From the NCBI GenBank assembly GCA_001029775.1, contig CP011215.1, forward strand, positions 32,148-96,147: a stretch of 64,000 bases of DNA, written 5' to 3'. The notes beneath the pieces are model-generated. The model did no database searches. It saw nothing but the letters and a program-made list of their open reading frames with translations, and was not told the origin of the DNA. Made by a program: the position numbers and the translations under genes. The stretch is from Candidatus Campbellbacteria bacterium GW2011_OD1_34_28. GTDB lineage: Bacteria > Patescibacteriota > Minisyncoccia > Phycocordibacterales > UBA12079. Within the stretch, counting starts at the first letter, position 1; every line of letters begins with the position of its first letter. Below are positions 8,290 to 48,052 of the stretch, piece by piece.

Positions 8290-8600
8290 TTATACTTGAT
8301 TTTCTGAAGCCCTGCCTCTTCTCTTCCAGGAAAGAGGCAGGGATTCACGAAGTTATTTTGGATTGCTTTGTCGTTTCGTTTCACTCCACTCCTCACAAAG
8401 ACGACGAAGTTGTCGTCTTTGTGAGGAGCTTGCGACGAAGCAATCCACGCCGTCCGTTCGTCGTTCTGGATCGCTTCGCTACCGCTCGCGAAGACGAAGT
8501 TTTGCTCCACAAAACTTCGTGACGAATTTCCGCAGGAAATTCGTCTTTGCGAGCGAAGCGAAGCAATCCACGTCGTTCATTTGTCTTCGTTACTATCGAC
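8290..8600. repeat. GC-rich hairpin-dense intergenic repeat element, copy 2
   Basis: Hairpins ccctgcctct..agaggcaggg, the 17-bp stem ctcctcacaaagacgac-gaagtt-gtcgtctttgtgaggag, gaagttttg..caaaacttc and gacgaatttcc-gcag-ggaaattcgtc, plus the family words gcgaagcaatccacgtcg and tctttgcgag. Confidence 0.6.
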
Positions 8601-15000: not shown

Positions 15001-18000
15001 CACTACTACTTTCTCCTAATGCTATGGATTTCCATCCACTTGCAGAACCATTAATCATGGAAACATTAACGCCACCAGAAGAGTTAACCTTAAATCCATT
15101 AGACACTTCTAGTTTGGCTGTCGGACTCGCCGTCCCAATGCCCACATTCCCCGTACTCCTATCCACCACCAATTTGTTTGTTCCCACAGCAAAACCACCA
15201 GCAAAAGTAGAAGTTGCTGTTGTTGAAGTTGCGTTGAAATAGTCGGCAACGACATCTCCGACAACGGAAAGTTTTGCGAAAGGTGAGGTGGTGCCGATGC
15301 CGACATTTCCTCCTAAAAACACCCCTGCATAATTGTTGATTGCTCCTGTAGAAGCATTCACCAATAACCCGTAGGCATTTGTTACTACGGCTTGGCTTGT
15401 GCTCACTGGTTTAGTTGGCACAAGAATACTATAAGCATTTGTAATAGAAACATTTGCACTTGTGCTTTTCCAAGGCCATGCGGTGACTAAACTTGCTGCT
15501 TCTGTAACCACTTGATTTGCAGTAGTGCTATACAGTTGCATATTACCCAATTTAGTTCCGTATATTGTATCGTAAGTCGTTGGATCAGAACCAGATAGAG
15601 TTACAAGATGATCACGCAATGTTATTCCCGTAACGCCCGAAGATGTCAATGTGGTGACGGGATTAATATCAAGAAATGATGCAGGGGCGGTAGTATTGAT
15701 TCCTAAATATCCAGATGAATTTATTCTTGCTCTTTCAAATGTATTAGCTGAACTACTTGTTGTCCAAAAACTAAGGTATCCCTGTGCATTTCCACCGGTC
15801 GAATTTTCCTTTGCTCCTTTTATTGAACCAAAAGTCCAAAAACCAGTTGAACCGGAGTATACACCACCCAATCCGATGCTTCCCCCTTTATTAATCGCGT
15901 TTGTATCAGTAGACATTACAAGCATATTACCGGCATATTGGTCATTGCTACCCAATACTAAATCGCTTCCACGTATATCAAGCGTACGCTGTGGGTTTAT
16001 CGTACCAAGGCCCACAACAGGTGTCGCGAGGTTAATATTTGAAGTCAAGCCATTAACAACCAATCCTGAAAACTGAGGAGAATCAGTCGTTCGCAGACTC
16101 TGGCTCAATGAGACATTGCCACCACTAATTGAGAGATTTCTGACAGTTTCATTTTTAATCCAAGTGGTCCCTATATATATTGAATTTGCTAAAGCAATAT
16201 ACCCGGTCGGAGTTAGATGCAAATAATCAGCGAGAGCATACGAGGCAAGAAGGGTGTCAGGATTGGTTGGATCTTCGAGCGCAGAATAAGCATCTATCCT
16301 ATAGTCAACATCGGATGCCATGTTAAGTATCCAATTATTAACATCTTCTAAAACTACCTGACGAGCTTCCGTCCATGAAGTGCTAGTTTTAAACGGAGTA
16401 ATCGTAACAGCCACAACCTTAGATCCGTTGGCGTTAGCCGCAGTGTACATAGCTTGTAAATTACTTTCAATAGTGGCGGCAGATGCGTTTGCTGCTATAT
16501 CATTTATACCTCCCAGGATAATTACATATTCAGCATCGTCAACTACTACATCACCAGAAAAACGCGCTGCCATTTGTGTAGTAGTATTGCCTCCAACGCC
16601 TTTGCTATTCACATTCCATAATGCCCCCAGTAAATCAGCCAATGCACTTCCATAGTTTGTTAAGCTATCACCTATAGCATATACTTGATGAGTTTGAAGA
16701 ATGTTCACTTTATTCAGAGAAATATCTCCGTTTACATCAAACTTCGCTCCCGGACTCTCCGTCCCCACCCCCACATTCCCTGTAGAATAATCAACAACAA
16801 ATTTGTTTGTTCCAACAGCCAAACCTCCTGCAAATGTAGAAGTTGCTGTGGCTGATGTTGCTGTAAAGTAAGGGGCAGAAATTGAACTTGTGGCAGTAAT
16901 TGAATTAGCGGTTAAATCACCACTGATCCACGCATTACCTTCTACACTCAACTTTCTGAAAGGTGAAGTCGTCCCAATCCCAACATTTCCACTTGCTCTC
17001 CAAACATCTGTTCCGTTGGATGTCCAATTACCAACGGCTGAACCTGATAAAAGATTACCACCCCAGTATAAATCATTGGAGATGTTGTAAAGTCTGTCGG
17101 TTGTGATTGATGGAGCTGATATTGGTGCAAGGTATGTTGCTCCGTTTACTGAAAGAGTATCTGAAGGTGTTGTTGATCCGATGCCTACACGGTTGTTGAT
17201 TGAATCGATGTAAAGAGTGTCTGTGTCAAAGATTGTGTCTCCTGATACGGTAAGAGTGTTTAGAGTGGTGTTGCCTGTTACAGTTAGATTGCCAGAGTAT
17301 GTTCCACTGGTTGCAGAAATAGGGCCACCGTATGTAGAGGTAGCTGTGCCTGTGACAGTTAGGTTTTGAATTGTTCCGTTGGTAAAGCTTAGTTCTGTTC
17401 CTGAGACATTTGAGGAACTGATGTTTGAGTCGGTGATTGTGACACTACCCAGATTGTCGATGTTGTTAGTAGCAGAGATTACTTGGTAGGTGTTGGTGAT
17501 TTGAGCATTTGTATTTGAAGAGAGTTTGTAGATTTCACTTCTCAGTTCGTTGTTTAGTTTTTGAAGATCTTCCAGTGTGATGCCGGATGTTTGGATTACT
17601 CTTTCTACAACAACTTCTTTGATTATTTCTCTGATTGGGTTTGTAACGATGGTGGTGGTCTTTGGAGTTGCGGGAACTGAAGGAACATTTTCCGAGATCT
17701 CGCCTCTGTCCGCTTCGCTCTCCGAGGAAAGACCTCGAGAAATTTCGTCTTCGTTTGTGCTATTGGTTGTTAGCTGTCCGCTGTCAGCTTCGTCAACGCT
17801 ATCAGCTGTTGGCTGTAAGCTATCAGCTTCGTTACTAAACAAATTATTAACAAACTTATACCAAACAATCGCAAACTGTTCCACAGGACTTGCTGTTTCG
17901 TAGACTGCTAAAGCTAGGTTGTTTACACCCGTCTTCGCGAACGAAGTGAAGCGACCTGCCTCGCCGGCAGGCAGGTCCATGTCGTCCGTTTTCTGGATTG

Positions 18001-18541
18001 CTTCGTCATAAACTCCTCGCAAAGACGACGAACCAGAGACAATTTTGTTTTTTAATCCATCTAAATAATCTAAAAAGTCTTGTGTATATGTATCTACTGT
18101 TTTTACATTTTTACTGTCTTTTATTTCTTTGATGGGAGAATTGTCATTGCTATCAAGAATTTGTGTTTTGAACAAATCTCTTTTTTCTGCACCAACTTTG
18201 TATGTTATTTCTTTTGTGTTTTTTACCGCAGAAAAAACAGCCTCCCCTGTTTTGTTGAGTTGGTTTAATATGTCTCCTGAAAAGTAACCTGCTCCGATTA
18301 AGAGAATCGCTAAAACAGCCGTTGACAATGCTCTCACTGGCAAAATCATCGGCTTGTTTGTTTTGTTTTTATATTCAAAAAGTTTTTCTAATTCAACAAA
18401 ATATTCCCCTTCTACCTTTGTAAAATCTATCTTTTCTTCACGGCACAGGTCTTTAATATGTTCTTCATCCAATTCTATGATTTTTGTCGCTTTTTTTGTT
18501 GAAAGATACCTTTTGCCATTTAAAAATATCTCACTTTGCAT
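12077..18541 (-). CDS. Giant surface protein 2 (about 2150 aa). N-terminal HTH-like cytoplasmic segment plus TM anchor, block shared with giant 1, repeat arrays, embedded SGNH/GDSL esterase domain, tail-fibre NTA-GY repeats, Peptidase S74 intramolecular chaperone domain, coiled coil, DUF5011 Ig domain.
   Basis: Track ORF is 12077..18589; the preferred start is MQSEIFLNGKRYLS (18541). TM segment LSTAVLAILLIGAGYF. A 110-aa block (ADSGQLTTNSTNEDEISRGL...NAQITNTYQVISATN) is nearly identical to giant 1. The SGNH motifs are AIGDSLT, GGNTT, GINDI and DYLHLT. The C-terminal 230 aa are nearly identical to giant 1. Confidence 0.8.
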   Translation of the reverse strand: MQSEIFLNGKRYLSTKKATKIIELDEEHIKDLCREEKIDFTKVEGEYFVELEKLFEYKNKTNKPMILPVRALSTAVLAILLIGAGYFSGDILNQLNKTGEAVFSAVKNTKEITYKVGAEKRDLFKTQILDSNDNSPIKEIKDSKNVKTVDTYTQDFLDYLDGLKNKIVSGSSSLRGVYDEAIQKTDDMDLPAGEAGRFTSFAKTGVNNLALAVYETASPVEQFAIVWYKFVNNLFSNEADSLQPTADSVDEADSGQLTTNSTNEDEISRGLSSESEADRGEISENVPSVPATPKTTTIVTNPIREIIKEVVVERVIQTSGITLEDLQKLNNELRSEIYKLSSNTNAQITNTYQVISATNNIDNLGSVTITDSNISSSNVSGTELSFTNGTIQNLTVTGTATSTYGGPISATSGTYSGNLTVTGNTTLNTLTVSGDTIFDTDTLYIDSINNRVGIGSTTPSDTLSVNGATYLAPISAPSITTDRLYNISNDLYWGGNLLSGSAVGNWTSNGTDVWRASGNVGIGTTSPFRKLSVEGNAWISGDLTANSITATSSISAPYFTATSATATSTFAGGLAVGTNKFVVDYSTGNVGVGTESPGAKFDVNGDISLNKVNILQTHQVYAIGDSLTNYGSALADLLGALWNVNSKGVGGNTTTQMAARFSGDVVVDDAEYVIILGGINDIAANASAATIESNLQAMYTAANANGSKVVAVTITPFKTSTSWTEARQVVLEDVNNWILNMASDVDYRIDAYSALEDPTNPDTLLASYALADYLHLTPTGYIALANSIYIGTTWIKNETVRNLSISGGNVSLSQSLRTTDSPQFSGLVVNGLTSNINLATPVVGLGTINPQRTLDIRGSDLVLGSNDQYAGNMLVMSTDTNAINKGGSIGLGGVYSGSTGFWTFGSIKGAKENSTGGNAQGYLSFWTTSSSANTFERARINSSGYLGINTTAPASFLDINPVTTLTSSGVTGITLRDHLVTLSGSDPTTYDTIYGTKLGNMQLYSTTANQVVTEAASLVTAWPWKSTSANVSITNAYSILVPTKPVSTSQAVVTNAYGLLVNASTGAINNYAGVFLGGNVGIGTTSPFAKLSVVGDVVADYFNATSTTATSTFAGGFAVGTNKLVVDRSTGNVGIGTASPTAKLEVSNGFKVNSSGGVNVSMINGSASGWKSIALGESSSATGEGSIVVGSGIASGQYSSVFGKGGATAAGQYSVVLGGTAKASATKSITIGFGYSGSGGGSLNNNIANSVLIGTNDGVQDFISFFAGPSGYTGIGTMTPSAKLDIYQGNLNLDNTTNTNQYGVISKNGTSFIHNFNYGNNGTVTTTGQNTFVGEEAGNLTMGSTATSASHGSYNTATGYRALYANTLGYFNTANGVNALFTNNTGYGNTASGIFTLYLNTTGYRNTAYGGSSMYNNNTGYHNTAIGYSSLQSNTSGYHNTASGYESLFSNTSGRYNTASGYTSLYANSTGMYNTAVGYSSLYANSTGHYNIAFGYNAGRYIANGSTGNTTGDYNTFLGYNTKALADNDQNEIVIGYDATGVGSNSVVLGNDSITTTALKGNVGIGTTSPFRKLSVEGSAWISGDLTVNSLTATSSISATAFNSTDTTNGGYSIGGSKILFASSTSRSVSVGIGAGNALLSGALNNTALGYEALYLATTSSSNTAVGYQALKANTTGYYNTAVGAGALDVNTTGIYNTAVGGLSMGANTTGSYNMAAGFSLTNNTTGNYNSALGYDSLSLNTTGTYNTSIGSESLRSNRTGSSNVAIGTQANRYNGSATSTVAIGYQAGQGVSTVSYNQGGVIIGYRSGVNLTTGDNNILLGYQAGETLTTGDNNIVIGYNIDSPTATSNNTMTIGNLIFGTGIDGNGTTISTGNIGIGSTTPNYKLTVDGTVAFQSLANNGTGYYVCANAGTGELATSTTACGASSERFKTNINDLTYGLDTVLQLRPVSFNWKSDFINSSSTQIGFIAEEVDLLIPEVIGHDDKGTIMNLDYPKLTSVLVNAIKEIWNKTQELIAKVSGLENRLNELEARLNALEGVDNTNTANSQQPTAEPSNTTPPTITITGNNPAVVEINSNYIDLGATAVDYQGNSLIVDTIDADTVDTTTAGEYTVTYTAFDGTLTSTSTRIVLVEEAIVDSLDSVATTTEPVVDSQ
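17925..18045. repeat. GC-rich repeat element, copy 3, embedded in-frame inside giant gene 2
   Basis: cttcgcgaacgaagtgaagcgacctgcctcgccggcaggcaggtc...ggattgcttcg...tcgcaaagacgacgaa shares the gacctgcc..ggcaggtc hairpin and family words with copy 4. It is translated as ...DDMDLPAGEAGRFTSFAKTG... with no stop. Confidence 0.55.
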
Positions 18542-18639
18542 ATTTATCTTTAGCCAAATTATACCAATAATTAAGGCTAATTTAAACAAAAAAGGGTGCG
18601 TAAGTGTTGATAAATAAATTGAAGCTTATAGCTCTATAG

Positions 18640-18895
18640 CACAGACGAAAACGAAGCTGACAGCGGACAGTCAATAGCTAACAGCACGGATGATGTGGAT
18701 TGCTTCGCTACGCTCGCAATGACGACGAAGGTGACGGAATTTCGTTTTGCGAAATTCCGTCTTCGCGAGGAGTGAAGCGACCTGCCTCGCCGACAGGCAG
18801 GTCGTTTCACCTTCGGTTCGCAAAGACGGACAAAGGCGGGAAATTTGCTTCGCAAATTTCCCGCCTAAATTCTAATTTCTAATTTCTAAATTCTC
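18640..18895. repeat. GC-rich hairpin-dense intergenic repeat element, copy 4
   Basis: Hairpins gacggaatttcg-tttt-gcgaaattccgtc and gacctgcct-cgccgac-aggcaggtc, the 12-bp stem ggcgggaaattt..aaatttcccgcc, the words ggattgcttcgc, cttcgcgagg and tcgcaaagacgg, and a tail ctaattt x3. Confidence 0.6.
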
Positions 18896-18899
18896 GTCT

Positions 18900-19874
18900 T
18901 TATTTATATAGCTCTGTCAATTTTTTAACCAAAAAATCTGACAAAGACTTTAAAGATTCATCGTCATAAACAGAAACAGAGACAACATCTTCACAATATT
19001 TTCTCAATTTTTCTTCCGCCTTTTTTGTTGTCTTGCTGTCAACCAAATCAGTCTTTGTCAAAATAATAATCTCGGATTTTTCAGCCAATTCTGGATCAAA
19101 TTTTTTCAATTCATTTTTAATTGTTTTATATGCTTTTACAACATCTTCATTTTCAAGAGAAATACAGTGCAAAAGAAGTTTTGTCCTTTTTATATGTCTT
19201 AAAAACTTGTGTCCCAAACCTTTTCCCTCTGATGCCCCTTCTATAAGCCCCGGAATATCCGCCAAAATATATTTGTACAATTCTCCCAAATTTGGTTCCA
19301 ATGTTGTAAAAGGATAAGCTCCCACTTTTGCATTTGCACGAGTTAATTCGTTAAGCAAAGAAGATTTTCCAGCACTTGGCAAACCGATAAGACCAGCGTC
19401 CGCAATCAATTCTAGCTCAATAAAAAATTCTGCGTCTTCGCCTTTTTTCCCCTCCGTAGATTCTACTGGGCTAGTATTTTTTGAACCCTTAAAATTTTCA
19501 TTTCCCAAACCGCCGTGACCTCCTTTCAAAACCAAAATATTCTCTCCCTCCTTAATCAATTCAAATTTTTCATCAGTTATCAAATTTTTTACAATAGAAC
19601 CAATAGGCAAATCAATAAACAAATCATCACCATTTTTTCCATGCATACTATTTTTCTCTCCATTTCCTCCGTTTTCCGCAGTAAACTTTTTATTTTTTGT
19701 GTAACGAGAAAGAACCTCTATATCTCTAATTGCACGAATATAGACATCGGCACCTTTTCCGCCATTGCCCCCAGCAGGACCCATAAGAGGTTTGTATTTT
19801 TCTCTTCTCCATCTAACAACACCGTCTCCCCCTTTTCCGGCTCTGGCATAAATTTTTAGTTCATCTATTAACAT
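18900..19874 (-). CDS. obg: GTPase Obg/CgtA
   Basis: The Obg fold Gly-rich N-domain (KIYARAGKGGDGVVRWRREKY...GGNGGKGADVYI) followed by a G-domain with GLPSAGKSSLLN, DIPGLIEGA and LTKTDL. The start is chosen at MLIDELKIY (19874); the track ORF extends 12 codons further. Confidence 0.85.
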   Translation of the reverse strand: MLIDELKIYARAGKGGDGVVRWRREKYKPLMGPAGGNGGKGADVYIRAIRDIEVLSRYTKNKKFTAENGGNGEKNSMHGKNGDDLFIDLPIGSIVKNLITDEKFELIKEGENILVLKGGHGGLGNENFKGSKNTSPVESTEGKKGEDAEFFIELELIADAGLIGLPSAGKSSLLNELTRANAKVGAYPFTTLEPNLGELYKYILADIPGLIEGASEGKGLGHKFLRHIKRTKLLLHCISLENEDVVKAYKTIKNELKKFDPELAEKSEIIILTKTDLVDSKTTKKAEEKLRKYCEDVVSVSVYDDESLKSLSDFLVKKLTELYK

Positions 19875-19918
19875 AAGAGACAGTATATATGTAGCAAAAA
19901 TAAAGAGCAACTTTTATT

Positions 19919-21118
19919 TTATTTATATTTAAGAGCAGTCAAAGGATTAAGCCTTGATGCTTTTATAGAAGGGTAAACTCCTGTGAGCAATCCGATTATT
20001 GTTGAAAAGACAATAATGAAGACAACAAACCAAACTGGTTGATAAAACAGGTCCAATGCCCTTCCACCAAAAGTTTTAGCCAAAATATTGACACCCAAGT
20101 TTGCAATTTCTCCTCCCAAATATCCGACAATAAGACCTCCCAAACCTCCCAAAAAACCCATCAAAATAGATTCAAACAAAAAGAGTTGAACAATATCTTT
20201 TCTTGTTATTCCAATAGCTCTCATAATACCGATTTCATTAATACGCTCCAACAAAGCGATTGTCATTGTGTTAAACATTCCAATAGCAGAAACAAGCAAA
20301 GCGATCAAACCAAACAAGGCCAAGATAATTTGGACTATTTTAAATATTTTATTTGCCTGATCAATAGTATCTGACAAAGATGAAACCAAAAATCCTCTTT
20401 CTATAATACTACTCCTGATACTCTCTATGCTTTCGTTATTTATAGACTTGACCTTCAAAAAATCATATTCAGTCAAACCAAGATCACTTATTGTTTTTTC
20501 AGGAATATAAATAAAATTTGTATCCTGACTCTCTACGACACCAACCACTTTGTATGAATCTTCCCTCTTGAATATTTGATCTTCAAAAGAACCATCTTCT
20601 GTTTCTTTTGAGACGAAGATTGTTAAAAATACTTCTCTTCCTATGATTTCTTGCGGTGTCATATCAAAAAGCTGTGCGCCTGCCGAAGAAATTACGACAC
20701 TGTGCTCATTTTCATCTTCAAAAAATTTCCCTTTCATAGGAAGGATTCCGTCCAGACGAAAAAAAGATGGCGTAACAGAATATACAAGTCCGTCTCCTGT
20801 GAATTCACCTATTGTGATGTGTGCAGATAGATTTACAACAGGACTTACTTCTACTACTCCTGTAATAGATCTGATCTCTTCCAGATCTCTTTGTGTTATT
20901 GTTATCAGATCAGTTGATCCCGCAGAAACATCCAAGCTCAAAAGAGAATCTACTGTCGTAATTTGACCCAAAATTACATTTTGAATACCATAACCCAAGG
21001 ACACAAGAAACAACACGGCTCCAATACCGACGCTTACTCCGAGTATGGTAAGAAATGTTCTAAGAGGTCTAGTCTTGAACATTCTTGTTGATAGTGAAAA
21101 TGTATCAATAATTCTCAT
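19919..21118 (-). CDS. ABC transporter permease, FtsX-like (MacB/LolCE family)
   Basis: 399 aa. N-terminal TM, large periplasmic domain, then three C-terminal TM segments containing the FtsX signature region GIMRAIGITRKDIVQLFLFESILMG. Confidence 0.75.
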   Translation of the reverse strand: MRIIDTFSLSTRMFKTRPLRTFLTILGVSVGIGAVLFLVSLGYGIQNVILGQITTVDSLLSLDVSAGSTDLITITQRDLEEIRSITGVVEVSPVVNLSAHITIGEFTGDGLVYSVTPSFFRLDGILPMKGKFFEDENEHSVVISSAGAQLFDMTPQEIIGREVFLTIFVSKETEDGSFEDQIFKREDSYKVVGVVESQDTNFIYIPEKTISDLGLTEYDFLKVKSINNESIESIRSSIIERGFLVSSLSDTIDQANKIFKIVQIILALFGLIALLVSAIGMFNTMTIALLERINEIGIMRAIGITRKDIVQLFLFESILMGFLGGLGGLIVGYLGGEIANLGVNILAKTFGGRALDLFYQPVWFVVFIIVFSTIIGLLTGVYPSIKASRLNPLTALKYK

Positions 21119-21124
21119 AATTTG

Positions 21125-22471
21125 TTAATTCTTGTATTTACCCAAAATTAATAATTCAAATCCTCTAGTCATTTTTTTAGCAGTTCTACTATCCAAACCA
21201 AGTCCTGATTCTTTAATAGGCAAGTCTAATATTTTCTTAAACATTTTAGAGTCGATCTTGTTATCAAGTCTGTCTTTTATAGCATTGTCTAATATTGTCA
21301 ATTGTTGTGATATTTGCAAATCAACGCTAAATGTCTCCAACAAATATTGTCTAATTTGAACCACCTCTTCCAATTCATCAAAGTTTTTATCTTTATTTTT
21401 TTGATCTTCAAGATCTCTAATATTTTTTATTTCATTGATTAAATCAAAAATCTTGTCTGCTATTTTTCTTGCATTTCTCTTATCCATTCCAAGTCCTCCA
21501 TCTTCAACTTCTTTATCCAAATAGTCATAAAAGTTCATCTCGCCTTCTCTTATACCATATTCTAACAACTCTCTGACCTTGGCTTCTATTTTTGAAACAT
21601 CGTCTGCTGTCATACCGATGAGAGCTTCTGTAACAATCTCTTTTGATTTGAAAGGAATAATACTGTTGATTGAATCTAAAATCGAAGGGAACGATCTGGA
21701 CAACAATTCTAATTCTCTAGAAACTGAAATCTGAGGTTTTTGTTCAATTGTTGAGACAACCTTGTCGTTTATTGCTCGGTTTACTTTTGTCTGAATTAAC
21801 ACCCCGTCTTTAATGTGAAAAACTCTGTGGGCATAATCCAAATAAGAAGCGTCGTGAGTAACCAGAATAATTGTCTTCTTTTGTTCATCATTAAGTTGTC
21901 TCAAAAGAGACATAACGTCCGCTGCCGATTTTGAATCGAGGTTACCTACGGGTTCATCCGCCATCAAAATATCTGGATCATTTATTAGAGATCTACAAAC
22001 AGCGACTCTTTGTTGTTGTCCTCCAGAAAGCTCGTTTGGCAATTTGTGAGACTGCAAGCCAACCCCAAATTTGTCTAACAAGTTTTGAGCCTTTTCTTCT
22101 CTCTCTTTAATCTTTGCACCAATGGCAATCTGTGGTAACACAACATTTTTAATAACACTAAGAGAAGCAATCAGATAATATGCCTGAAAAATCATTCCTA
22201 TTTTCTTTTGGTGGAGAGTTTCTATCTCTGATTGTTTAAGTCCGTTCAGTTTTTTATTATCAATATAAACATTTCCCTCGATGTCTGTTTCCAAACCAGA
22301 GATAGAATAAAGCAATGTTGATTTTCCACAACCAGACGGACCAAAGAAAATTATAAATTCTCCTGGAAAAATTTCGAGTGAAATATTTTTCAGTACTTTT
22401 GCTTCATTAGTTTTACCCAAATTATAGGTAACATTTAAATTTTCTACTTTTACAATAGGGTCAATGGACAT
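21125..22471 (-). CDS. ABC transporter ATP-binding protein (MacB/LolD type) with an unusual C-terminal extension of about 220 aa
   Basis: Walker A GPSGCGKST, signature LSGGQQQRVAVCRSL, Walker B ILMADEPVGNLD, H-loop VTHD. The extension has two copies of a motif: EDGGLGMDKRNARKIADKIFDL and KESGLGLDSRTAKKMTRGFELL. Confidence 0.8.
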   Translation of the reverse strand: MSIDPIVKVENLNVTYNLGKTNEAKVLKNISLEIFPGEFIIFFGPSGCGKSTLLYSISGLETDIEGNVYIDNKKLNGLKQSEIETLHQKKIGMIFQAYYLIASLSVIKNVVLPQIAIGAKIKEREEKAQNLLDKFGVGLQSHKLPNELSGGQQQRVAVCRSLINDPDILMADEPVGNLDSKSAADVMSLLRQLNDEQKKTIILVTHDASYLDYAHRVFHIKDGVLIQTKVNRAINDKVVSTIEQKPQISVSRELELLSRSFPSILDSINSIIPFKSKEIVTEALIGMTADDVSKIEAKVRELLEYGIREGEMNFYDYLDKEVEDGGLGMDKRNARKIADKIFDLINEIKNIRDLEDQKNKDKNFDELEEVVQIRQYLLETFSVDLQISQQLTILDNAIKDRLDNKIDSKMFKKILDLPIKESGLGLDSRTAKKMTRGFELLILGKYKN

Positions 22472-22495
22472 AATTAAAATTATTTTATTTAGCTT

Positions 22496-25400
22496 TTATC
22501 TACCGCGAATATCTCCAACCCAACCAAATATATCTTCAACATTTGACATAATTACCTGGAATACAGACTCTCTGTGTCTAGGAGTAAGGATTGTATAAAC
22601 TTTTGACAAACTTACATTTCCTCCAGAGTCGGTGCTTTCTACCCTAAAGCTGTAAACTGTTCCTAGATCAAACGAAGTAATTACAACCACGTGTTTCTTC
22701 GTATATGTGCTGTCTAATTTTGTCATATTGGCTAGTGGTTTGTCCATACCAATAATTCCTTTTTGGTAATAAACTTGACTTGTTGAAGGTTCGTTAGTTA
22801 ACCAAGTGATGATGCTTTGAATTTTACTTTCTTTACCTGTAGAAATAGCTGAATCTGTCTTTACGGAATAAATCAAAGGAGGGAGGTCATCTTCTGATGT
22901 AGAAAAAGTAGGAATCTTTTTGCTTGTGATAGAACCGTCTACACCCTTGCTGGTCAATTCAACATCATAAAATACTCCTGCTTCCAAATTGTCCAATTCA
23001 ATTTCGTGAATAAAACTATTTCTTTTATCCGAAATTGTTGTTGTTTCCTCGATAGAAAGAGTATTATTTCTGTACGGTGTATATCGAACAGTTCCATCTG
23101 CCTCTACGTTTGTAACCCACTGAAAGACAACTGATTCGTTTGAATTTTTCTTTATTGTATAAGAAGAAATTTCCAATTCTTCAGATCTTGTTTTGAAAGT
23201 AAAGTCAGGAGAGTACCCGATTGTTCCTACAGAGGCTTTGCTTCTTACTTGATAATGATAATTCGTCTCTGGTTCCAAATCATAAATCATTACTGTGTGA
23301 TCTGTTGTGCTTGTAGAATTTCCACCTATTACCTGTACATATCCCATCTCATCAGAATTTGTTCCTTTGAAATCTTTTTCCTGAGCAATCGCAACAAAAG
23401 AACCCGCTGGCTTGTCAGTTCTCCAAGAGATGGTTGCTGTCTTGGCTGTTGTCACAACCTTTGGTTCTCCGCTCATAAGAGGTGCAGAGATTCTTGTAGA
23501 CAAATATTCCAAATTAGTAAACTGTTCTGAAACTGTTGTCTCCAAAGTTCCAAGAGAAACTTGAGAAGAAATCTTGAGAGCCAATCCCATTGCCTGTCGC
23601 ACAGTAGAAACAAACAATTCATCCAATTCTTCTGCTGTCATTGTCTTTGACAAAGAGTCATCGCCTTCATTATTTTTTTCCAACTGATCAACAAACGATA
23701 TTGTCTCAAAACTCTTCTCTGGAGAACGATAAACATTTCCGAAAGAATCATTTCCTGCAACCTTAAAGAAATATGTTTTTTCTGGAAGAAGATAATTCAA
23801 ATTTACTTCGTGAATATTACCCATGCTGAGACTTCCTATCGTCGTTCCATAACTATTTGTCAAACCGTACTCGACAAAACCATTAGCGCTTTCATCAGTT
23901 TTCCATCTAATTTTTGCCGAAGTATCTGTTATATTCAAAATTTCTATATCTGAAAATCCTGGAGCCGTAACATCTGCATCACTTTGTCTTCTACTTACAG
24001 CGGCGCCCTGTCTAGCTGCCAATTCTCTTGCCAAAACTTCCGACTCTAAAGAAAGTTCTTCTAGGGTTGTAAAATCTGCTTCATCAGAAACAACACTGTT
24101 TCCATTAGCATCTGAGGAATAAACCCTGTAATAATATTTTGTGCTGGTTGCTAAGTTGATAAGGGCAACTGTGTGATCACGGTTATAATTGACCGCCAAA
24201 GAAGTACTTGTCGCATAATCGCTTATGTCATTACCACTTTCTGGACCAAAATAAACTCTCGCATTTGCATCTTCGTCAGTCGTCCACTGAATAATAGCAG
24301 TCGTATCTGAAATAGAAGAACTATCCGGACCTGTTGTTATAGTCGGAGAGGTTGTATCATTGTTTGTTGTAAAACTATAATAATCTCCAGAAAAATTGTC
24401 TAATGCAATATTACCTTCAGCATCAACAGACTTAACATAGAAATAATAGGTTGTTGCCTGATCCAACCCTGTAATATCTGCAGAGTGCGCAGTTGTAAGA
24501 TTAACTGAACCTTGAAATTCTGAGGAAACACTAAGATCGGGGTTAAGAGAATAAACAACAGCAGTATCAGCAAGAATGTCAGTATTCCAAACTATTGTTA
24601 CCATATTATTATCTACATGAGAAACAAGAACATCAGAAATCACCGCTCCTGGATTTGTTGTAAATGTATATCCTGGACCATCGTTATCGTCAGTATCTGA
24701 ATTTCCTGACAAGTCGGAAGACATTGCTTGGAAATAATATGTTGTATCTGGTGTTAACCCAGTAAGAAAAATTTGGTGCTGTCCGATACCGCTTTCTGAA
24801 TCTGCCATGGTTGAAACACCGACTTCGCCAGAAAATTGATATGGGATTGTTGAATAACCCACAGTTGAACGAGATACCTCGTCAGTATCCCAAGTTACCA
24901 CTGCACTCTGTGTTGTAACTGATCCAACAGAAACATTAGAAATGGTCGGAGGAACATTGTCTCCACCTCCCTGTCCATCAGCGAGTTCGCTCACTTCACT
25001 TGAATAATATGATGATGTACCGTAAGTGTCTTCTGTTGAAATCTTGTAATAATAAGTTGTGGATGTTGCAATTCCGCTATGTACATAATAGTTTGTTGTA
25101 CGAACATTTACTCTATCTAACAAAGAATAGTCGGTTCCGTTTGTAGAAGACCAAATATTGTATCTTCTGAAATTTGTGATATTTGTCGTCGCAGGTTTCC
25201 ATGCCAAAAACATATAGTAACTTCCTGTTACATAGTTTGCGACATCATACGCTTGTAAATTCAAAGCTGTTTCCATTGTCTCAACAGATGCACTAACAGT
25301 ATTTCCCAAAGCATCTCTAAATTGAACATAGGCAATGTCAGGGTCAGTCTCGAGAGTAATTGTGGAAGAACTTTGGTAAGCTTCCCAAGCACCATCGCTA

Positions 25401-28400
25401 TAGTCCGACGCCAATCCGATCTTCATTTCAATAGAATTATCGTCTGACACATCAAAATTTAATGTAGCAGGAGATGTTGTTGCTGTTACAGTAACATAAG
25501 TAGAAGATGTTGCAGGATCTTTTGTATCCAAACTAAACGATGAAGATGTCACGGTCTGACTATTTGATGAACAGGAAGAAACCAATCTTATCTGCATCGT
25601 TTCATTATATGTTCCGTCGTAGTCAATTTTTGCATCCCAAATAATTTGTTTAGCGGTGCTAGAAGAAACACCAGTTCCATAATCACCAGACAAACTGGTT
25701 GCATCCAGCCAACTTGCACCATCCCAATATTTTAACGAAACACTTGATACAGCAGAGCATCCTTCATAAATAGAATAATCATAACCAACGATTACTTTTC
25801 CTAAAGTTCCCGAATCTGTTGATTGAGAAGATGTCAAATTTGAAATTGCAACAGTCGTCAGATTAAAATCGGCTGTCATAGAGCTCGCTATATTATTGGC
25901 AGCTTCGTTGTCGTTTACGGTCACTCTAATTTTTGCTGTAGTTGTTGAAGTATCCAAACCTATCTGTAACTGAGGATCCCATGTCATCGTATAAGTTGAA
26001 TAGCTGGCCTCATCTACTGCTTTGTTGTCAGTAGATGTAGCATTCATTCCGGCTGTTATGTTACCCCATGTCGAACCACCATCAAGAGAATATTCAAATG
26101 AAGGTGTTAATTCATTTGGACTATTTGTTCCTGTGGTTGAGTCTATGTCTCTAACAGAATAAACAATTTCAACAATTCCATCTGTTCTTTGTACTGCAGT
26201 GGCTTCACTTTGGAAATCAGGAGTTTCGTTCACTACATATTCAAGACCCGCGCTAGTTACCATCGGCACAGCACCGTTATCAGATTCCAATGTTATTTTG
26301 TATTGCATCCATTGATCGGCCGTCATATCGGTAAATTCTGTTGAAACATCCGTAATACTGCAGACAATGTCTGTTCCTGTTTTTACACAACTTCCCACAT
26401 CACTTTGAAAAAAACCTCCATCTACATCATCATCTCCTAAAAAGTTCGACGCTGTGTCTGTGTCAGGGGCAGGTCCGTCTGTAGAGGTAGCAGTTCTCAA
26501 CTGAAACTTGACTGCAGTTCCAGCAGGCAAAGATTCGTTCTCGGACCAATTTATTTTTGAAACAATATTTACGATATCATTACTGTTATACCAGCTTGAA
26601 AGAAGTGTCCCTGTTGTAGTTGTGTAATTTATATAATTAAAAGAAATATCTTGTAGTTGAGGCGTTACAGAAATATCTGTGGTTGAAAAAACAACCTGAT
26701 ATTGAATATATTGATCGGTGTTGTTAACACAACTAGAAGCAGACGCAATATCCGTGATGCCTTTATCACTTCGACTGAAAGCGGGACAACTAGAAATGGC
26801 GGTTTCCCCCGAACAAGAAGCATCGTCGCAAGTTCTAACTTTTATTTGTAAATCTGTATCAGTCAAAATAGAGCCAGATTCATTTTCTGTCCAATCGATT
26901 GTTGTTAAACCTGTGTTAGCTCCCAAATTTTGAATATCTGATGTATATACACCCGAAGATTCATACTCAACCACGATGTTCAGTGAAGAAGTGTTTGCCG
27001 TCGGAGCAGTAGTTCCAGAAATATTACTAGATTTCACATGGATGCGTCCTACACCTCCATCCCCACCATCAACACTTCCACAATCATCACTTGTACCATC
27101 ACCCGCTCCACCAGAAGCCGTAACATGTGAAGCCGTGCCAAGAACTACGGAATTACCTGTCAGATAAATAGATCCTCCCGATCCGCCCCCGTTAGGAGAG
27201 GTGTGCAAAGTCGGACTTGTTCCATTGCTGACAATGTTTCCAACGGAGGAATTTATAGAACCTGCACCAATATACACTATACCACCACCATCTCCACCAG
27301 TATCTCCAAAATTGGCAGCCGTACCTCCTGCGCTTCCAAGATAAAATTTGCTTAAATCTGCAATTCCATAAATAGATCCTCCAACAGCAGGAGCCATCCC
27401 TTGTCCTACAGCTCCATATCCTCCACCTGCACCAGTTGCAATAAAACAAAAAGGATCATCTAAATAATATGCCCCACCTCCTCCAAGATTAGCACTCGTA
27501 GAAACTGCACCTAGTTTACTATATGATTCTCCTTGCACAGCAGTAACAGCAGATCCCCTAAATCCTTTTCCTGTCATATTAATACTTCCGCCACTTCCAA
27601 CTGTTACAGCACCACTCGCCAAAAACGCCAATACTCCACCTTTGGATCCATTCCAATCGCTGGCTGTCAAAACACCTCCCGAAATTGTTAGGTCGGTATA
27701 ACGAGGAACTCTTTGCAACATCACTCTTTGGTTTGTTGTTGCTGTTCCTATGTTGGTATCGTCGGAATCAGTACCGTCTCCATAATATTTTGTTTTGTTG
27801 CTAGCGAAAGTAACTGTATTTGAAGAAACAGACAGTACTTCAAAGATTTCATAATTTCCAACATTTCCATAGTTTGAGGCTGTTCCTTGCAAATTTATTA
27901 ATAAAACAGAATCTCCTGCGGATAAACAGCCAGCGGAAGGAGATGTTGACAAAGTAGCCGTGTTTGAAGAAAGTGCTGTAGCACTATAAGAAACTCCGTC
28001 TCCTCCATCGGCACAACTTCTTCCACTTGCAAGAGTATCAGTATTTATATTTACAGTTCCGCTAGAAATAGTAACGCTACCGTCTGCGTAAGTTCCTTCG
28101 GGAATTTCTTCCAACTCAATGCTTCCTGCGGTTTGAGTTCTGCTTGTACTGCTATCTGTCCCACCAGAAAAATCGGTATCAGTATGAGTGTCTTCTGCTT
28201 TGTCTATTCTATTAAAATTAATTGTTGCAGAAGATAGCGCAGATGTCTGCGATAAATCCGACGATGCACCAAAAGTCACTTTGTATTGAACATATCTATT
28301 TCCATCTGTAACACAAGGATCGCTAGATATATCATTTCCACTTGTAATATTTGAACAGCTTGTCCAATTATTAGCACCAGCCATATCTGTACTAGTTCCT

Positions 28401-29182
28401 GTTCTCACTTTCACAGTAAGAGTCGAGTTGGAAGGAACAGAAGAACTGAAAACTAGTGTTCCAAAATTTGCGTTTCCTAAAGTATCATAAACAGGAGAAG
28501 TATAAGTTCCGGTGCTGTAATAACTTCCGCCATTCAAACTTAGTTGAACAGAACCAGAAGTACCACTTCCACTTGTTCCTGTTTGAGAATTTGTTCCTGC
28601 GTCAAAATCTGTGTCGGTTGTTTGTGTCCATGAAGCTGCAGCAGTTGCAAGAGTAACACCGTCAGAAGAAGTAACAACACCAGTTGATGAATCAAAACTT
28701 GTAACCGTTGGAGTCGGAGAAGAGTGTGTAACATAAGTTCCGGGACTAGCAGAAGCATCCCAATCAGTTTGTGTCCATGAATAAGTGGCGGCATACGCTC
28801 TTGGAGCAGGTCCTAAAGATAAATTTAGTACAGAAACCATTAACAATAGAACCAAAGTAGAAGATAAAATTTGAGGAATAGTTTTTTTAATTTTTTTGAT
28901 ACTAAAAATATCTTTCAAAAACAAAAAAACAACATCTCTCATGCGAGGACTCTCATCTTTTATATATACAGCTCTGCTAGCTTCTTCTTTTACAAGTTCT
29001 AAAAAAGATTTTTCAACATACATTTTTCCTTTTACAGTTTTTGTATTTATTTCTTTGTCATAACAAAAACTGACTATGTATTCTTTTTTATAGCCTGTTA
29101 AATCTGAAGCCCTTTCCAGAGAAATATACTTTTGTACTTTTGATACAATTTCTTTATGCTTCATCACACTAAATGATAACAT
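22496..29182 (-). CDS. Giant surface protein 3 (2228 aa). N-terminal HTH-like segment plus TM anchor, Gly-rich beta-helix-like region, multiple fibronectin type III domains.
   Basis: N-terminus YISLERASDLTGYKKEYIVSFCYDKEINTKTVKGKMYV, then TM IPQILSSTLVLLLMVSVLNLSLG. Gly-rich segments (GGGGAYY, GGDGGGIVYIGAGS, GGGSGGSIYLTGNS). At least five FN3-like units (for example PPTISNVSVGSVTTQSAVVTWDTDE..., SPTITTGPDSSSISDTTAIIQWTTDE..., APGFSDIEILNITDTSAKIRWKTDE...). Confidence 0.8.
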   Translation of the reverse strand: MLSFSVMKHKEIVSKVQKYISLERASDLTGYKKEYIVSFCYDKEINTKTVKGKMYVEKSFLELVKEEASRAVYIKDESPRMRDVVFLFLKDIFSIKKIKKTIPQILSSTLVLLLMVSVLNLSLGPAPRAYAATYSWTQTDWDASASPGTYVTHSSPTPTVTSFDSSTGVVTSSDGVTLATAAASWTQTTDTDFDAGTNSQTGTSGSGTSGSVQLSLNGGSYYSTGTYTSPVYDTLGNANFGTLVFSSSVPSNSTLTVKVRTGTSTDMAGANNWTSCSNITSGNDISSDPCVTDGNRYVQYKVTFGASSDLSQTSALSSATINFNRIDKAEDTHTDTDFSGGTDSSTSRTQTAGSIELEEIPEGTYADGSVTISSGTVNINTDTLASGRSCADGGDGVSYSATALSSNTATLSTSPSAGCLSAGDSVLLINLQGTASNYGNVGNYEIFEVLSVSSNTVTFASNKTKYYGDGTDSDDTNIGTATTNQRVMLQRVPRYTDLTISGGVLTASDWNGSKGGVLAFLASGAVTVGSGGSINMTGKGFRGSAVTAVQGESYSKLGAVSTSANLGGGGAYYLDDPFCFIATGAGGGYGAVGQGMAPAVGGSIYGIADLSKFYLGSAGGTAANFGDTGGDGGGIVYIGAGSINSSVGNIVSNGTSPTLHTSPNGGGSGGSIYLTGNSVVLGTASHVTASGGAGDGTSDDCGSVDGGDGGVGRIHVKSSNISGTTAPTANTSSLNIVVEYESSGVYTSDIQNLGANTGLTTIDWTENESGSILTDTDLQIKVRTCDDASCSGETAISSCPAFSRSDKGITDIASASSCVNNTDQYIQYQVVFSTTDISVTPQLQDISFNYINYTTTTGTLLSSWYNSNDIVNIVSKINWSENESLPAGTAVKFQLRTATSTDGPAPDTDTASNFLGDDDVDGGFFQSDVGSCVKTGTDIVCSITDVSTEFTDMTADQWMQYKITLESDNGAVPMVTSAGLEYVVNETPDFQSEATAVQRTDGIVEIVYSVRDIDSTTGTNSPNELTPSFEYSLDGGSTWGNITAGMNATSTDNKAVDEASYSTYTMTWDPQLQIGLDTSTTTAKIRVTVNDNEAANNIASSMTADFNLTTVAISNLTSSQSTDSGTLGKVIVGYDYSIYEGCSAVSSVSLKYWDGASWLDATSLSGDYGTGVSSSTAKQIIWDAKIDYDGTYNETMQIRLVSSCSSNSQTVTSSSFSLDTKDPATSSTYVTVTATTSPATLNFDVSDDNSIEMKIGLASDYSDGAWEAYQSSSTITLETDPDIAYVQFRDALGNTVSASVETMETALNLQAYDVANYVTGSYYMFLAWKPATTNITNFRRYNIWSSTNGTDYSLLDRVNVRTTNYYVHSGIATSTTYYYKISTEDTYGTSSYYSSEVSELADGQGGGDNVPPTISNVSVGSVTTQSAVVTWDTDEVSRSTVGYSTIPYQFSGEVGVSTMADSESGIGQHQIFLTGLTPDTTYYFQAMSSDLSGNSDTDDNDGPGYTFTTNPGAVISDVLVSHVDNNMVTIVWNTDILADTAVVYSLNPDLSVSSEFQGSVNLTTAHSADITGLDQATTYYFYVKSVDAEGNIALDNFSGDYYSFTTNNDTTSPTITTGPDSSSISDTTAIIQWTTDEDANARVYFGPESGNDISDYATSTSLAVNYNRDHTVALINLATSTKYYYRVYSSDANGNSVVSDEADFTTLEELSLESEVLARELAARQGAAVSRRQSDADVTAPGFSDIEILNITDTSAKIRWKTDESANGFVEYGLTNSYGTTIGSLSMGNIHEVNLNYLLPEKTYFFKVAGNDSFGNVYRSPEKSFETISFVDQLEKNNEGDDSLSKTMTAEELDELFVSTVRQAMGLALKISSQVSLGTLETTVSEQFTNLEYLSTRISAPLMSGEPKVVTTAKTATISWRTDKPAGSFVAIAQEKDFKGTNSDEMGYVQVIGGNSTSTTDHTVMIYDLEPETNYHYQVRSKASVGTIGYSPDFTFKTRSEELEISSYTIKKNSNESVVFQWVTNVEADGTVRYTPYRNNTLSIEETTTISDKRNSFIHEIELDNLEAGVFYDVELTSKGVDGSITSKKIPTFSTSEDDLPPLIYSVKTDSAISTGKESKIQSIITWLTNEPSTSQVYYQKGIIGMDKPLANMTKLDSTYTKKHVVVITSFDLGTVYSFRVESTDSGGNVSLSKVYTILTPRHRESVFQVIMSNVEDIFGWVGDIRGR

Positions 29183-29248
29183 GGATTTGTCAAAAACACT
29201 GTGGAAAATTAAACAAAAAATCTAAAAAATTATAGAAATTTTTGCATT

Positions 29249-29875
29249 CTAAAATTTTTTTATCTTTTTAAAATACCAAATCAAAATAATAGCCGTAATA
29301 AGAAAAATAGAGACAAAACTAGTCAAAAATACATTGTCAAACAAGACAATTTTGTAACCATAAGCAAAAATAAATGAAAAAGGGATAATTCCTATAAAAG
29401 AAGCCAGTAAATATTTTCCCATCTTCATATTTGTCAAAAGACCAATTAAATAACTTATTACATCCACAGGGATAACCATTCTCAAGAAAACAACCCACCA
29501 AAAACCGATATCCTCTGGCAAATACTTGTGATATTTAACAACATCTTTTTCTGAAATAAATTTCATCAAAATTGGTCTCCCAAAACCTCGTGCAATCCAA
29601 AAAGCAATTGCTGAACCAATAAACCATCCAATGATAGAGTAAATAGCTGTTTCAAATTGACCCAACAAAACACCCACGGCTGGAACAATCGGCAAGATAA
29701 CCAACGGTTCAAATACAGTAGAAAGCACCATCAAAAAAATAAAAACAAAAATACTTAAGATTGAATTGTCTACTACAAATTTACTAAAATAATCCATAGG
29801 AGCCTGCCAGAAAAAAAACACTATTGTAAGAACAACAAACAAGACAATAAAAATGTTTTTTAATAATTTTATCAT
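29249..29875 (-). CDS. DedA / TVP38 / SNARE-associated family membrane protein
   Basis: 208 aa. Polytopic, with LPIVPAVGVLLG and ARGFGRPIL, typical DedA motifs. Confidence 0.65.
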   Translation of the reverse strand: MIKLLKNIFIVLFVVLTIVFFFWQAPMDYFSKFVVDNSILSIFVFIFLMVLSTVFEPLVILPIVPAVGVLLGQFETAIYSIIGWFIGSAIAFWIARGFGRPILMKFISEKDVVKYHKYLPEDIGFWWVVFLRMVIPVDVISYLIGLLTNMKMGKYLLASFIGIIPFSFIFAYGYKIVLFDNVFLTSFVSIFLITAIILIWYFKKIKKF

Positions 29876-29890
29876 TTGTATGTAACAAAT

Positions 29891-30898
29891 TTAAACTGTT
29901 ACCAAATTTATAGGATCGTTTTTTTCAAATGCTTTTATATTTTCAACAGTTACTGAAAAAATTCTTTCTATGGCTTCTTGTGTGTTGAAAGCATTATGTG
30001 GAGTAATAATAACCTGTGGGTGATCGATCAAATATTGATTTTCCAAAACAGTTTTCAAAGTATCGGGATTAGGGTGTTCTTGAGTGAGTAAACTAACTTC
30101 ATCATTCATCAAACTTTCTTCTTCTAATACATCCAATCCTGCGCCAGACAAAATACCCTTTTCAAGTGCCTCAACTACCGCGTCTGTCTCAACCACTTCC
30201 CCTCTAGATGTGTTTATCAAAATTGCGCCTTTCTTTATTTTCGAAATATTTTCTTTATTGATCAAATGTCTTGTGTGAGGATTCAGAGGAACATGCAAAG
30301 AAATAATATCTGATTCGGACAACAAATCGTCAAAATCTGCATATTCAAAATTTAATTCTTTTGCAAAATCCTCGTCTCTTTTAATATCAAAAGCGATTAC
30401 TTTCATTCCAAATCCATTTGCCATTCTGATAGAGTGCTTTCCAATATTTCCAACACCAACGATACCCATTGTCTTGCCCGCCAAATCAGAACCTCTTAAG
30501 CCTTCTTGAGAGAAACTTCCTTGCTCAACTATTCTATTATAAGCGGGATATATTTTTCTTGTTAGCGACAAAAGTAATGCAAAAGAAAATTCTGCAACAG
30601 TATTTTCTCCGTATGTTGGCACATTTGAAACTTTTATATTTCTTTTCTTTGCTTCTTCCAAATCGATATGGTCATATCCGGTTGAACGAGTAACAATAGA
30701 TTTTAAATTTGGAAAACGATTCATTTCATCAATTCCCACAGGAGAATTTACGAAAACAACCAACATTTCTGCTTGATCGTCTTTATATGCGACATTGTCT
30801 TGAGTTGTTCCTTTCAAAAAAACTATCTCATTTCCTGACAATCTTTCTGAAAAATAATCTTTTTCTTTTCCCTCTTCGTAAAAATATACGATTTTCAT
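29891..30898 (-). CDS. D-isomer-specific 2-hydroxyacid dehydrogenase (D-lactate / phosphoglycerate dehydrogenase family)
   Basis: 335 aa. NAD-binding GKTMGIVGVGNIGK, a catalytic R/E/H arrangement, and HVPLNPHTRHLIN. Confidence 0.8.
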   Translation of the reverse strand: MKIVYFYEEGKEKDYFSERLSGNEIVFLKGTTQDNVAYKDDQAEMLVVFVNSPVGIDEMNRFPNLKSIVTRSTGYDHIDLEEAKKRNIKVSNVPTYGENTVAEFSFALLLSLTRKIYPAYNRIVEQGSFSQEGLRGSDLAGKTMGIVGVGNIGKHSIRMANGFGMKVIAFDIKRDEDFAKELNFEYADFDDLLSESDIISLHVPLNPHTRHLINKENISKIKKGAILINTSRGEVVETDAVVEALEKGILSGAGLDVLEEESLMNDEVSLLTQEHPNPDTLKTVLENQYLIDHPQVIITPHNAFNTQEAIERIFSVTVENIKAFEKNDPINLVTV

Positions 30899-46104: not shown

Positions 46105-46109
46105 ATTAT

Positions 46110-46138: not shown

Positions 46139-46151
46139 CCCGCAGGACATT

Positions 46152-48019: not shown

Positions 48020-48021
48020 AC

Positions 48022-48047: not shown

Positions 48048-48052
48048 TATTT

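Follow-up and report, generated by a model that had tools for sequence, protein, structure and literature searches.

What does a split ATP-binding cassette (ABC) transporter do beside the gene for a giant surface protein? The question is raised by positions 19919-29182 of a 64,000-nucleotide stretch of Candidatus Campbellbacteria bacterium GW2011_OD1_34_28 (contig CP011215.1; the whole stretch is called the window below), where a gene for a 2228-amino-acid (aa) protein with fibronectin type III (FN3) domains is followed by genes for an ABC ATPase and a separate permease. A preliminary description of this DNA had observed the giant together with a split MacB-type pair at these positions, and we confirm that observation. 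Patescibacteria are thought to be host-attached, with giant surface proteins the ones usually proposed to make contact with the host (PMC13059738, PMC11809585). We report that the ATPase carries a family-specific C-terminal domain, that the part of the giant which travels with the pair is a conserved C-terminal module, and that module, ATPase and permease are linked across deep lineages. That these three would form a Patescibacteria-specific, three-part envelope system, with a direct partnership on the cell surface, is a reading to which we give about even chances.

Gene layout at the locus

The open reading frame (ORF) list of the window contains three co-directional genes on the minus strand, in the order giant, ATPase, permease (Table 1), separated by gaps of 24 bp and 6 bp, just as first described. 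The giant ORF (2222-2228 aa) and an identical gene order were found in four independent assemblies, among them a 1.44-Mb scaffold and GenBank LBQI01000001.

Such tight co-directional spacing is weak evidence for an operon, because an Obg GTPase gene (18900-19910, minus strand) begins only 8 bp after the permease (44 bp with the start chosen by other gene callers) and almost all genes of the window lie on the minus strand. A promoter scan of 18500-30000 returned 34 promoter-like sites, compared with 35.6 expected from shuffled sequences, and a terminator scan of the same interval detected no intergenic terminator inside the trio. Obg was considered as a fourth member of the unit and rejected, since it adjoins the pair in no other locus examined. 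Across the window (1-64000) the cumulative GC skew declines in an almost monotonic course from -0.05 to -5.6, and nearly all ORFs of at least 150 aa are on the minus strand; strand bias and skew together fit a window that lies wholly on one replichore.

A conserved C-terminal module in the giant and its relatives

BLAST comparison of the giant with proteins from related loci produced one colinear alignment that runs from aa ~1369/1510 to 2226, reaches the last residues and shows 36-43% identity; over the first ~1360 aa, matches were patchy or absent. Only the last ~720-860 aa of the giant are thus conserved. In a 12-sequence alignment this module reads as FN3-like domains, a helical linker, an FN3-like domain, a helical insert, three further FN3-like domains and a terminal tail, a plan that suggests a stalk-like structure of six to eight FN3-like domains with two helical segments. 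The Pfam matches of the giant all fall in its C-terminal half, with Pur_ac_phosph_N, a family of FN3-like fold, in seven stretches (E=1.3e-38, 131.9 bits) and fn3 at E=2.2e-16 (60.3 bits vs a cut-off of 25), which exceeds the "at least five" FN3 domains expected beforehand. With several FN3-fold domains above the Pfam cut-offs and an N-terminal export signal, the giant is an FN3-repeat surface protein.

The tail of the module has the consensus ESVFQVIMxNxExxFGW, followed by a few mostly basic residues, and its FGW is invariant in the module alignment. Almost every one of the ~80 module proteins ends in this tail, those away from an ABC pair as well as those beside one. Its helix is amphipathic and not membrane-spanning (hydrophobic moment 0.44, mean hydrophobicity 0.38). 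Set beside sortase- and exosortase-type signals, the tail combines a conserved motif with a helix and a basic end in almost every module protein; the helix, again, is amphipathic, and the tail matched no NCBIfam model even at E<=10, with neither an LPXTG motif nor a known CTERM sorting model detected.

Module proteins range from ~640 aa, consisting of a signal peptide plus the module, to more than 2700 aa. The giant of the window is a long form, in which ~1250 aa of variable ectodomain separate the N-terminal anchor from the module. In one clade the protein is a ~735-aa short form made of a basic tail, one transmembrane (TM) segment and the module, and many other module proteins carry cleavable-looking signal peptides and lie away from any pump. 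A division by form, with TM-anchored proteins beside the pair and signal-peptide proteins elsewhere, was considered and does not hold consistently.

Two-way linkage of module, ATPase and permease

Linkage was examined from both sides. A forward scan with the alignment of the C-terminal extension of the ATPase, taking one genome per species, yielded 30 loci. The permease comes after the ATPase in every forward locus with room for it, and a homologue of the giant adjoins the pair in 15 of the 30: directly upstream in 11, and in four, all of one clade, directly downstream of the permease as the ~735-aa short form. In the clade where the order is pair then module (L023, L027-29, L058), the protein consists of a TM segment and the module only. 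On a dendrogram of the ATPase, module adjacency appears in 11 of the 15 clusters formed at 60% identity. This makes the linkage an old one, with losses in some clades (for example at the named Falkowbacteria locus L016), and not a local peculiarity.

The reverse test started from the module. A word-indexed homologue search returned 41 proteins, for the most part FN3 repeat proteins of a general kind, and helped little with synteny; a pattern-based metagenome scan with the last 230 aa of the module did far better, with more than 408 relatives. The best 80 loci of these relatives were analysed, of which 67 were informative and 13 uninformative. The pair adjoins the module in 33 of the 67, and the other 34 have at least 1.5 kb of downstream sequence and no pair. 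Most of the adjacent loci (26 of 33) show the order module then ATPase, with a median gap of ~84 bp and many gaps of 2-50 bp; at one apparent exception, L048, the ATPase is frameshifted. Linked loci persist at permease identities as low as 36-47%.

The genes around the trio behave differently. The genes that come next to the permease on its downstream side in 38 loci form 25 sequence clusters, the largest of which is the module gene itself, and Obg never recurs. Because the flanks differ almost everywhere, the trio, and not a wider region, is the retained unit; it is kept in both gene orders. Conservation of the three-gene neighbourhood in related genomes, which had been proposed as a check on the original idea, is thus borne out at 15/30 loci in the forward and 33/67 in the reverse direction, and the linkage is strong both ways.

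Some related loci are arranged in other ways. At L114 (2-6564) the module is followed by a 685-aa permease and then by a 459-aa ATPase whose extension does not match that of the window. L073 (1-6690) has a permease, an unknown 472-aa protein and a 1381-aa module protein in that order, and L102 (2-3199) has the module, two unknown ORFs and a permease, with no detectable ATPase. The records of loci L007-L011, L013, L015, L019, L022, L026, L028, L030 and L033 are titled "uncultured Gammaproteobacteria bacterium"; gene content and named homologues suggest that these titles are placeholder or mislabelled taxonomy.

A family-specific C-terminal domain in the ATPase

The top NCBIfam matches of the ATPase are LolD (2.2e-60), DevA (3.1e-58), MacB (1e-55) and FtsE (1.8e-52), all under the cut-offs of their models. 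Its earlier assignment as an ABC ATPase of MacB/LolD type holds, on the ABC_tran match and membership in the LolD/DevA/MacB/FtsE clade; what had been missed is a 215-aa C-terminal domain, which makes the protein, at 448 aa, twice the usual size. The family is widespread in Patescibacteria: more than 120 database proteins match the ATPase at 50-69% identity across 97-100% of its length, and the homologues that carry names, which are few, all belong to Patescibacteria, including Falkowbacteria and the Parcubacteria group.

The extension is well conserved in its own right, with a mean column identity of 56%. It holds an internal duplication of a ~30-residue motif of the GGxGxDKRTAKK type (hhalign probability 97%, E=9.6e-11). 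An AlphaFold2 model predicts it to be all-helical and joined to the nucleotide-binding domain (NBD) by a disordered linker, with a predicted local distance difference test score (pLDDT) of ~90 for the second repeat. An exhaustive HMMER search with the extension alone recovered 207 representative clusters. Where the protein is full-length, the match starts in most cases at about residue 225-260, right after the NBD, which makes the extension an accessory domain specific to this ATPase family. It has no credible match in Pfam or NCBIfam, also at relaxed thresholds, and a PDB profile search with the extension alignment gave nothing better than E=0.44, that is, no clear structural relative.

A type VII permease

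In the permease, Pfam detects MacB_PCD (1e-23, aa 21-238) and FtsX (1.8e-19, aa 268-392), and hydropathy analysis places TM-like windows at about aa 23-41, 261-279, 313-331 and 362-380, with a ~215-aa loop between TM1 and TM2. The gene thus encodes the separate FtsX-like permease with a large outer domain that had been described, and the Pfam annotation recommended along with that description now covers all three proteins, with FN3-type domains on the giant, ABC_tran on the ATPase and MacB_PCD/FtsX on the permease. A four-TM permease with a TM1-TM2 outer domain and an FtsX-type bundle, adjoining an ATPase of the LolD/MacB/FtsE/DevA clade, identifies the pair as a type VII ABC system. Among solved structures, the best match of the permease is Bacillus subtilis YtrF (2.9e-35), and MacB is next (2.7e-23).

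The N-terminal part of the giant

Homologues match the variable ectodomain of the giant in patches, at 26-39% identity, and short forms do not have it. On this pattern, aa 124-1368 are a lineage-specific, adhesin-like "decoration". Within it, aa 439-730 match the NCBIfam model gliding_AgmC_N at E=6.7e-20, with a score of 71 bits that is far under the cut-off of 275. Local GC in this Gly-rich region is 0.414, vs ~0.33-0.35; the locally GC-rich, Gly-rich stretch noted earlier at 27080-27620 lies inside these residues and does have raised GC.

The region before the signal-anchor (28871-29182) has no match in Pfam or NCBIfam, relaxed thresholds included, and the translated N-terminus contains no lipobox cysteine. 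The motif A[AT]Y.[WF].QT[DG]W that follows the TM segment (28760-28789 in the window) is common to other giants. Long forms (the window, L111, L064, L069, L075, L076, L087 and L100) have regions of 100-165 aa before the TM segment. The N-terminus of L111 resembles the pre-TM region of the giant, and both look, by eye, like helix-turn-helix (HTH) domains of excisionase/MerR type; another group of long forms has a different conserved pre-TM region (…NIWTNL…EF.PLR[IM]A) that matches no model.

Table 1. Features of the giant, ATPase and permease genes, in window coordinates
Feature	Coordinates	Strand	Description
Giant surface-protein gene	22496..29182	-	2228 aa, ATG start; Pfam Pur_ac_phosph_N x7 and fn3
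Predicted cytoplasmic N-terminal region of giant, ~104 aa	28871..29182	-	Precedes single strong hydrophobic segment; HTH/excisionase-like by eye
Signal-anchor/TM of giant, aa 105-123	28814..28870	-	Kyte-Doolittle maximum 2.21 at aa 105; then AYA/ATYSWTQTDW
Variable ectodomain of giant, aa 124-1368	25079..28813	-	Beta-sandwich-like repeats and Gly-rich segment
Gly-rich AgmC_N-like (putative beta-helix) segment, aa 439-730	26993..27868	-	NCBIfam gliding_AgmC_N; raised GC
Conserved C-terminal module, aa 1369-2228 (core aa 1510-2228)	22499..25078	-	FN3-like domains, two helical segments, C-terminal tail
Conserved helical linker TLEELSLESEVLARELAAR…, aa 1706-1741	23960..24067	-	Columns TLExLxxExxVxxRExxAR kept in 12-sequence alignment
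Helical insert between FN3 domains, aa 1828-1907	23462..23701	-	Variable length, in all module homologues, ends PxPxxxGEPxV
Extreme C-terminal tail RESVFQVIMSNVEDIFGWVGDIRGR	22499..22573	-	Amphipathic helix and basic end
ATPase gene	21125..22471	-	
ABC ATPase nucleotide-binding domain, aa 1-232	21776..22471	-	ABC_tran 1.2e-32 (Pfam)
ATPase C-terminal extension, aa 233-448	21125..21775	-	All-helical, duplicated F..LD...E.GG.G.D.RTA.K motif, terminal LELLILGKYK
MacB/FtsX-fold permease, 399 aa	19919..21118	-	Four TMs, ~215-aa extracytoplasmic core domain

Other genes in the window and related loci

Downstream of Obg lie genes for proteins of 2170 aa (12077-18589, minus strand) and 1089 aa (8600-11869, minus strand). 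By Pfam, these have in common a C-terminal Peptidase_S74 (intramolecular chaperone) plus Bact_surface_Ig-like end, the larger one also has a GDSL lipase domain, and the FN3 domains of the module were not seen in either. At L002 (14502-21347), rpoB/rpoC come after Obg in place of the 2170-aa gene, through strain variation or an assembly join.

Elsewhere in the window, positions 42580-44760 (minus strand) encode a 726-aa protein with Wzy_C (O-antigen-ligase-like) and TPR domains, beside a low-GC cluster (0.28-0.34) at 44845-62643. The part of that cluster that was scanned, 44845-49826, includes genes for NeuB, a cytidylyltransferase, a flippase-like Polysacc_synt protein, a radical-SAM/SPASM protein and a methyltransferase. 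In three unrelated loci (L063:2991-4343, L077:2945-4267, L079:1795-4308), Wzy_C(+TPR) genes lie upstream of short (~645 aa) module proteins. This Wzy_C/NeuB context may relate to O-glycosylation of S/T-rich (27%) surface proteins. Small genes of the 23S_rRNA_IVP family (four-helix bundle) come right after short-form module genes at L079:6826-7227 and L084:6663-7091, and next after them come genes for 1700-1840-aa proteins, one of which has intein splicing and Fib_succ_major domains.

Discussion

Comparison with known systems

In FtsEX, too, a type VII ABC system is divided between an ATPase and a permease of FtsX fold, which has four TMs and an extensive outer loop; FtsEX works by mechanotransmission to a partner protein and not by transport (PMC7668044, PMC6355983, PMC10694151). 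The gene for that partner (EnvC, PcsB, CwlO, RipC) is often adjacent, and the partner has helical segments. The system in the window differs from it in three places: the permease loop is a full MacB_PCD, the partner is FN3-like and has no hydrolase, LytM or CHAP domain, and the ATPase has a 215-aa extra domain that FtsE does not have. An FtsEX assignment was rejected on scores of 178.1 vs 264.85 bits for FtsE, 39.3 vs 225 for FtsX_Gpos and 29.5 vs 255 for FtsX_Gneg, and on a linked partner that offers neither hydrolase nor activator domain and consists of nothing but FN3-like domains with short helical segments.

MacAB(-TolC) and its Gram-positive counterparts, the MacAB-like pumps (PMC5985334), share with the window the MacB_PCD plus FtsX architecture and an ATPase of the same clade. 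In the window, by contrast, NBD and permease are separate genes and no outer-membrane duct is expected. Nor was a gene for an HlyD-family membrane-fusion protein (MFP) adaptor found in the 30 Pfam-scanned window genes or among the sampled neighbours of related loci, part of which were scanned. The equivalog cut-off for MacB is 966, compared with 189 bits for the ATPase and 84 bits for the permease, and MacAB was rejected. A type I secretion system (T1SS) was rejected as well: the permease is of FtsX fold and encoded apart from the NBD, with no fusion to a six-helix transmembrane domain, no MFP was found, and the giant has an N-terminal signal-anchor.

LolCDE deserves separate mention, since the preliminary description had reserved a lipoprotein system of this type, with its lolC/E partner elsewhere, as the outcome that would overturn its own proposal. 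The Lol models score far under their cut-offs (LolD 203.9 vs 307.75 bits, lolCE 75.5 vs 362.45, LolC 46.6 vs 473, LolE 33.8 vs 439), and a single permease gene follows the ATPase in the window and in related loci, where LolCDE would have two paralogues; LolCDE was rejected and that outcome does not apply.

The best solved match comes from YtrEF of B. subtilis (YtrF, PDB 9o9x/9o9y), which is, like the pair in the window, a split ATPase-permease pair in a monoderm. The best-matching stretch is mainly the TM half of the permease (aa 226-397), and the ytr operon has no FN3 partner. To our knowledge, YtrE has no domain comparable to the C-terminal extension of the ATPase.

On the side of the surface protein, the giant resembles the fibrillar adhesins of monoderms in having an N-terminal signal/anchor, a variable head, an FN3-like stalk and an invariant C-terminal motif with a basic end. 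It differs from them in that LPXTG and known CTERM signals are absent and the terminal helix is amphipathic, not a hydrophobic TM, and the machine linked to it is an ABC system, not a sortase or exosortase. The parallel, with an ABC machine in the place of the sortase, is an analogy.

What the linkage may mean

The preliminary description had given the transporter a dedicated role in exporting, releasing or remodelling the giant. An association between the two is upheld by the conserved neighbourhood, with the correction that it concerns the last ~720-860 aa and not the whole giant. The word "dedicated" does not survive, as roughly every second module gene is found away from the pair, and some contigs have two or three such genes. 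Export of the giant by the pair is unlikely, given the giant's own signal-anchor, the SecA encoded in the window and the MacB/FtsX fold, whose members are not known to move polypeptides through the cytoplasmic membrane; the pair may still release or remodel the giant.

The most direct challenge to a partnership of module and pair is that the two have independent functions: the pair would be a housekeeping envelope system, either an FtsEX-like regulator of hydrolases or a BceAB/YtrEF-like protection against compounds that target the cell wall, and the adjacency would be inherited or co-regulated. The pair and the ATPase extension are kept where no module adjoins and the flanks are housekeeping genes, module genes are often elsewhere and in several copies, the best solved match comes from a cell-wall-stress operon, and Obg is as close behind the permease as the ATPase is behind the giant. 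We nevertheless find this explanation doubtful, if well worth keeping in mind. Adjacency is kept in most ATPase clusters and in both orders while other neighbours change, and by our estimate the chance that a given gene lies within two positions of the pair is well below 1% in a genome of ~1400 genes. Moreover, no peptidoglycan-hydrolase or coiled-coil activator gene lies beside the pair among the neighbours scanned, and the FtsE and FtsX scores fall below the equivalog cut-offs. If instead the pair were a MacB-like efflux pump for small molecules or peptides, the module protein could be its membrane-fusion or adaptor component, an oligomeric conduit analogous to MacA or YknX. The complete MacB_PCD of the permease, the rank of MacB as second-best solved match and the short form, a single-pass membrane protein in the same operon-like unit with the usual position and topology of an adaptor, all speak for it. 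Adaptors, however, are not normally extended to 2000-2700 aa with adhesin-like heads, only FN3-like domains were detected in the module, with no HlyD/MFP-type barrel-sandwich, lipoyl or alpha-hairpin domain, and many module proteins have cleavable-looking signal peptides and are not located beside a pump, so that we judge an adaptor role improbable.

A T1SS-like exporter of the giant or a LolCDE-type releaser of lipoproteins would account for the adjacency of the genes, for LolD as the top NCBIfam match of the ATPase and for the signal-like C-terminal tail of the module, given that T1SS substrates likewise carry C-terminal signals. These proposals are largely refuted by the fold and cut-off tests, and we consider them very improbable: the fold is that of FtsX/MacB and not the six-helix fold of T1SS exporters, no MFP gene was found, the giant has a signal-anchor and no lipobox cysteine, the LolD and lolCE scores fall well short, and each locus has one permease gene. 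Patescibacteria are, moreover, regarded as lacking an outer membrane.

Several observations weigh against a three-part system itself. In about half of the cases the pair lies among unrelated housekeeping genes (RNase J, NusB, RNase III, PilT-like ATPase, QueA, RuvB), and about half of the module genes are away from any pair; some of these lie beside Wzy_C-type genes instead, and there are contigs with two or three module-bearing giants and no pair nearby (L090/L091). The loci are not phylogenetically independent and CPR (Candidate Phyla Radiation) gene orders are partly inherited, so the fractions 15/30 and 33/67 overstate the number of independent events. What joins module and pair is a genomic link only. 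In the giants, the module is more than 1200 aa from the N-terminal anchor, and its proximity to the membrane is an assumption. The closest solved homologue, YtrEF, is without an established function (PMC12772383) and offers nothing transferable.

For a three-part system of module, ATPase and permease, we infer a physical interaction, its direction and the role of each element as follows. The module-bearing surface protein, membrane-anchored or secreted, would be exported by Sec and would not be carried across the membrane by the pair. Type VII ABC systems (PMC5985334, PMC7668044) act at the outer face of the membrane and transmit ATP-driven movement, and carry no polypeptide across it. By such mechanotransmission, ATP hydrolysis in the cytoplasm would move the extracytoplasmic domains of the permease, which is presumably homodimeric and has a core domain of MacB type outside the membrane, and these would act on the module at the outer face. 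Module-bearing proteins could be docked or anchored, positioned, extracted or released, or conformationally actuated, with the invariant C-terminal tail and/or the helical segments as the likely handle. The C-terminal domain of the ATPase may serve as a cytoplasmic regulatory or dimerising element.

Significance

A literature search found no described link of MacB/FtsX systems of the CPR with FN3 or giant proteins, and no description of the module or the ATPase extension; for Patescibacteria, the literature mentions no more than unspecific ftsE/ftsX annotations and giant surface proteins with FN3 domains. All components come from known superfamilies; the novelty lies in the partner, the tail motif and the ATPase domain.

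We think it unlikely that this is an undescribed, Patescibacteria-specific type VII machine which would read the C-terminal tail as a sorting or docking signal and use ATP to anchor, extract or release, or actuate adhesin-like fibres on epibiotic cells. If that were true, the machine would be an ABC-driven counterpart of the handling of surface proteins by sortases and exosortases, or an ATP-powered actuator of adhesins. The linkage itself would extend the type VII ABC superfamily in two ways, by a partner of a new kind, namely an FN3 stalk that ends in an invariant tail, and by a cytoplasmic ATPase domain new to it. As annotation markers, the C-terminal tail and the GGxGxDKRTAKK repeat, together with the LELLILGKYK terminus, can serve for hundreds of CPR proteins now labelled "hypothetical". 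For Patescibacteria themselves, the linkage offers a concrete, testable hypothesis for how cells without an outer membrane, and often without a recognisable sorting system, may hold and operate giant proteins on their surface.

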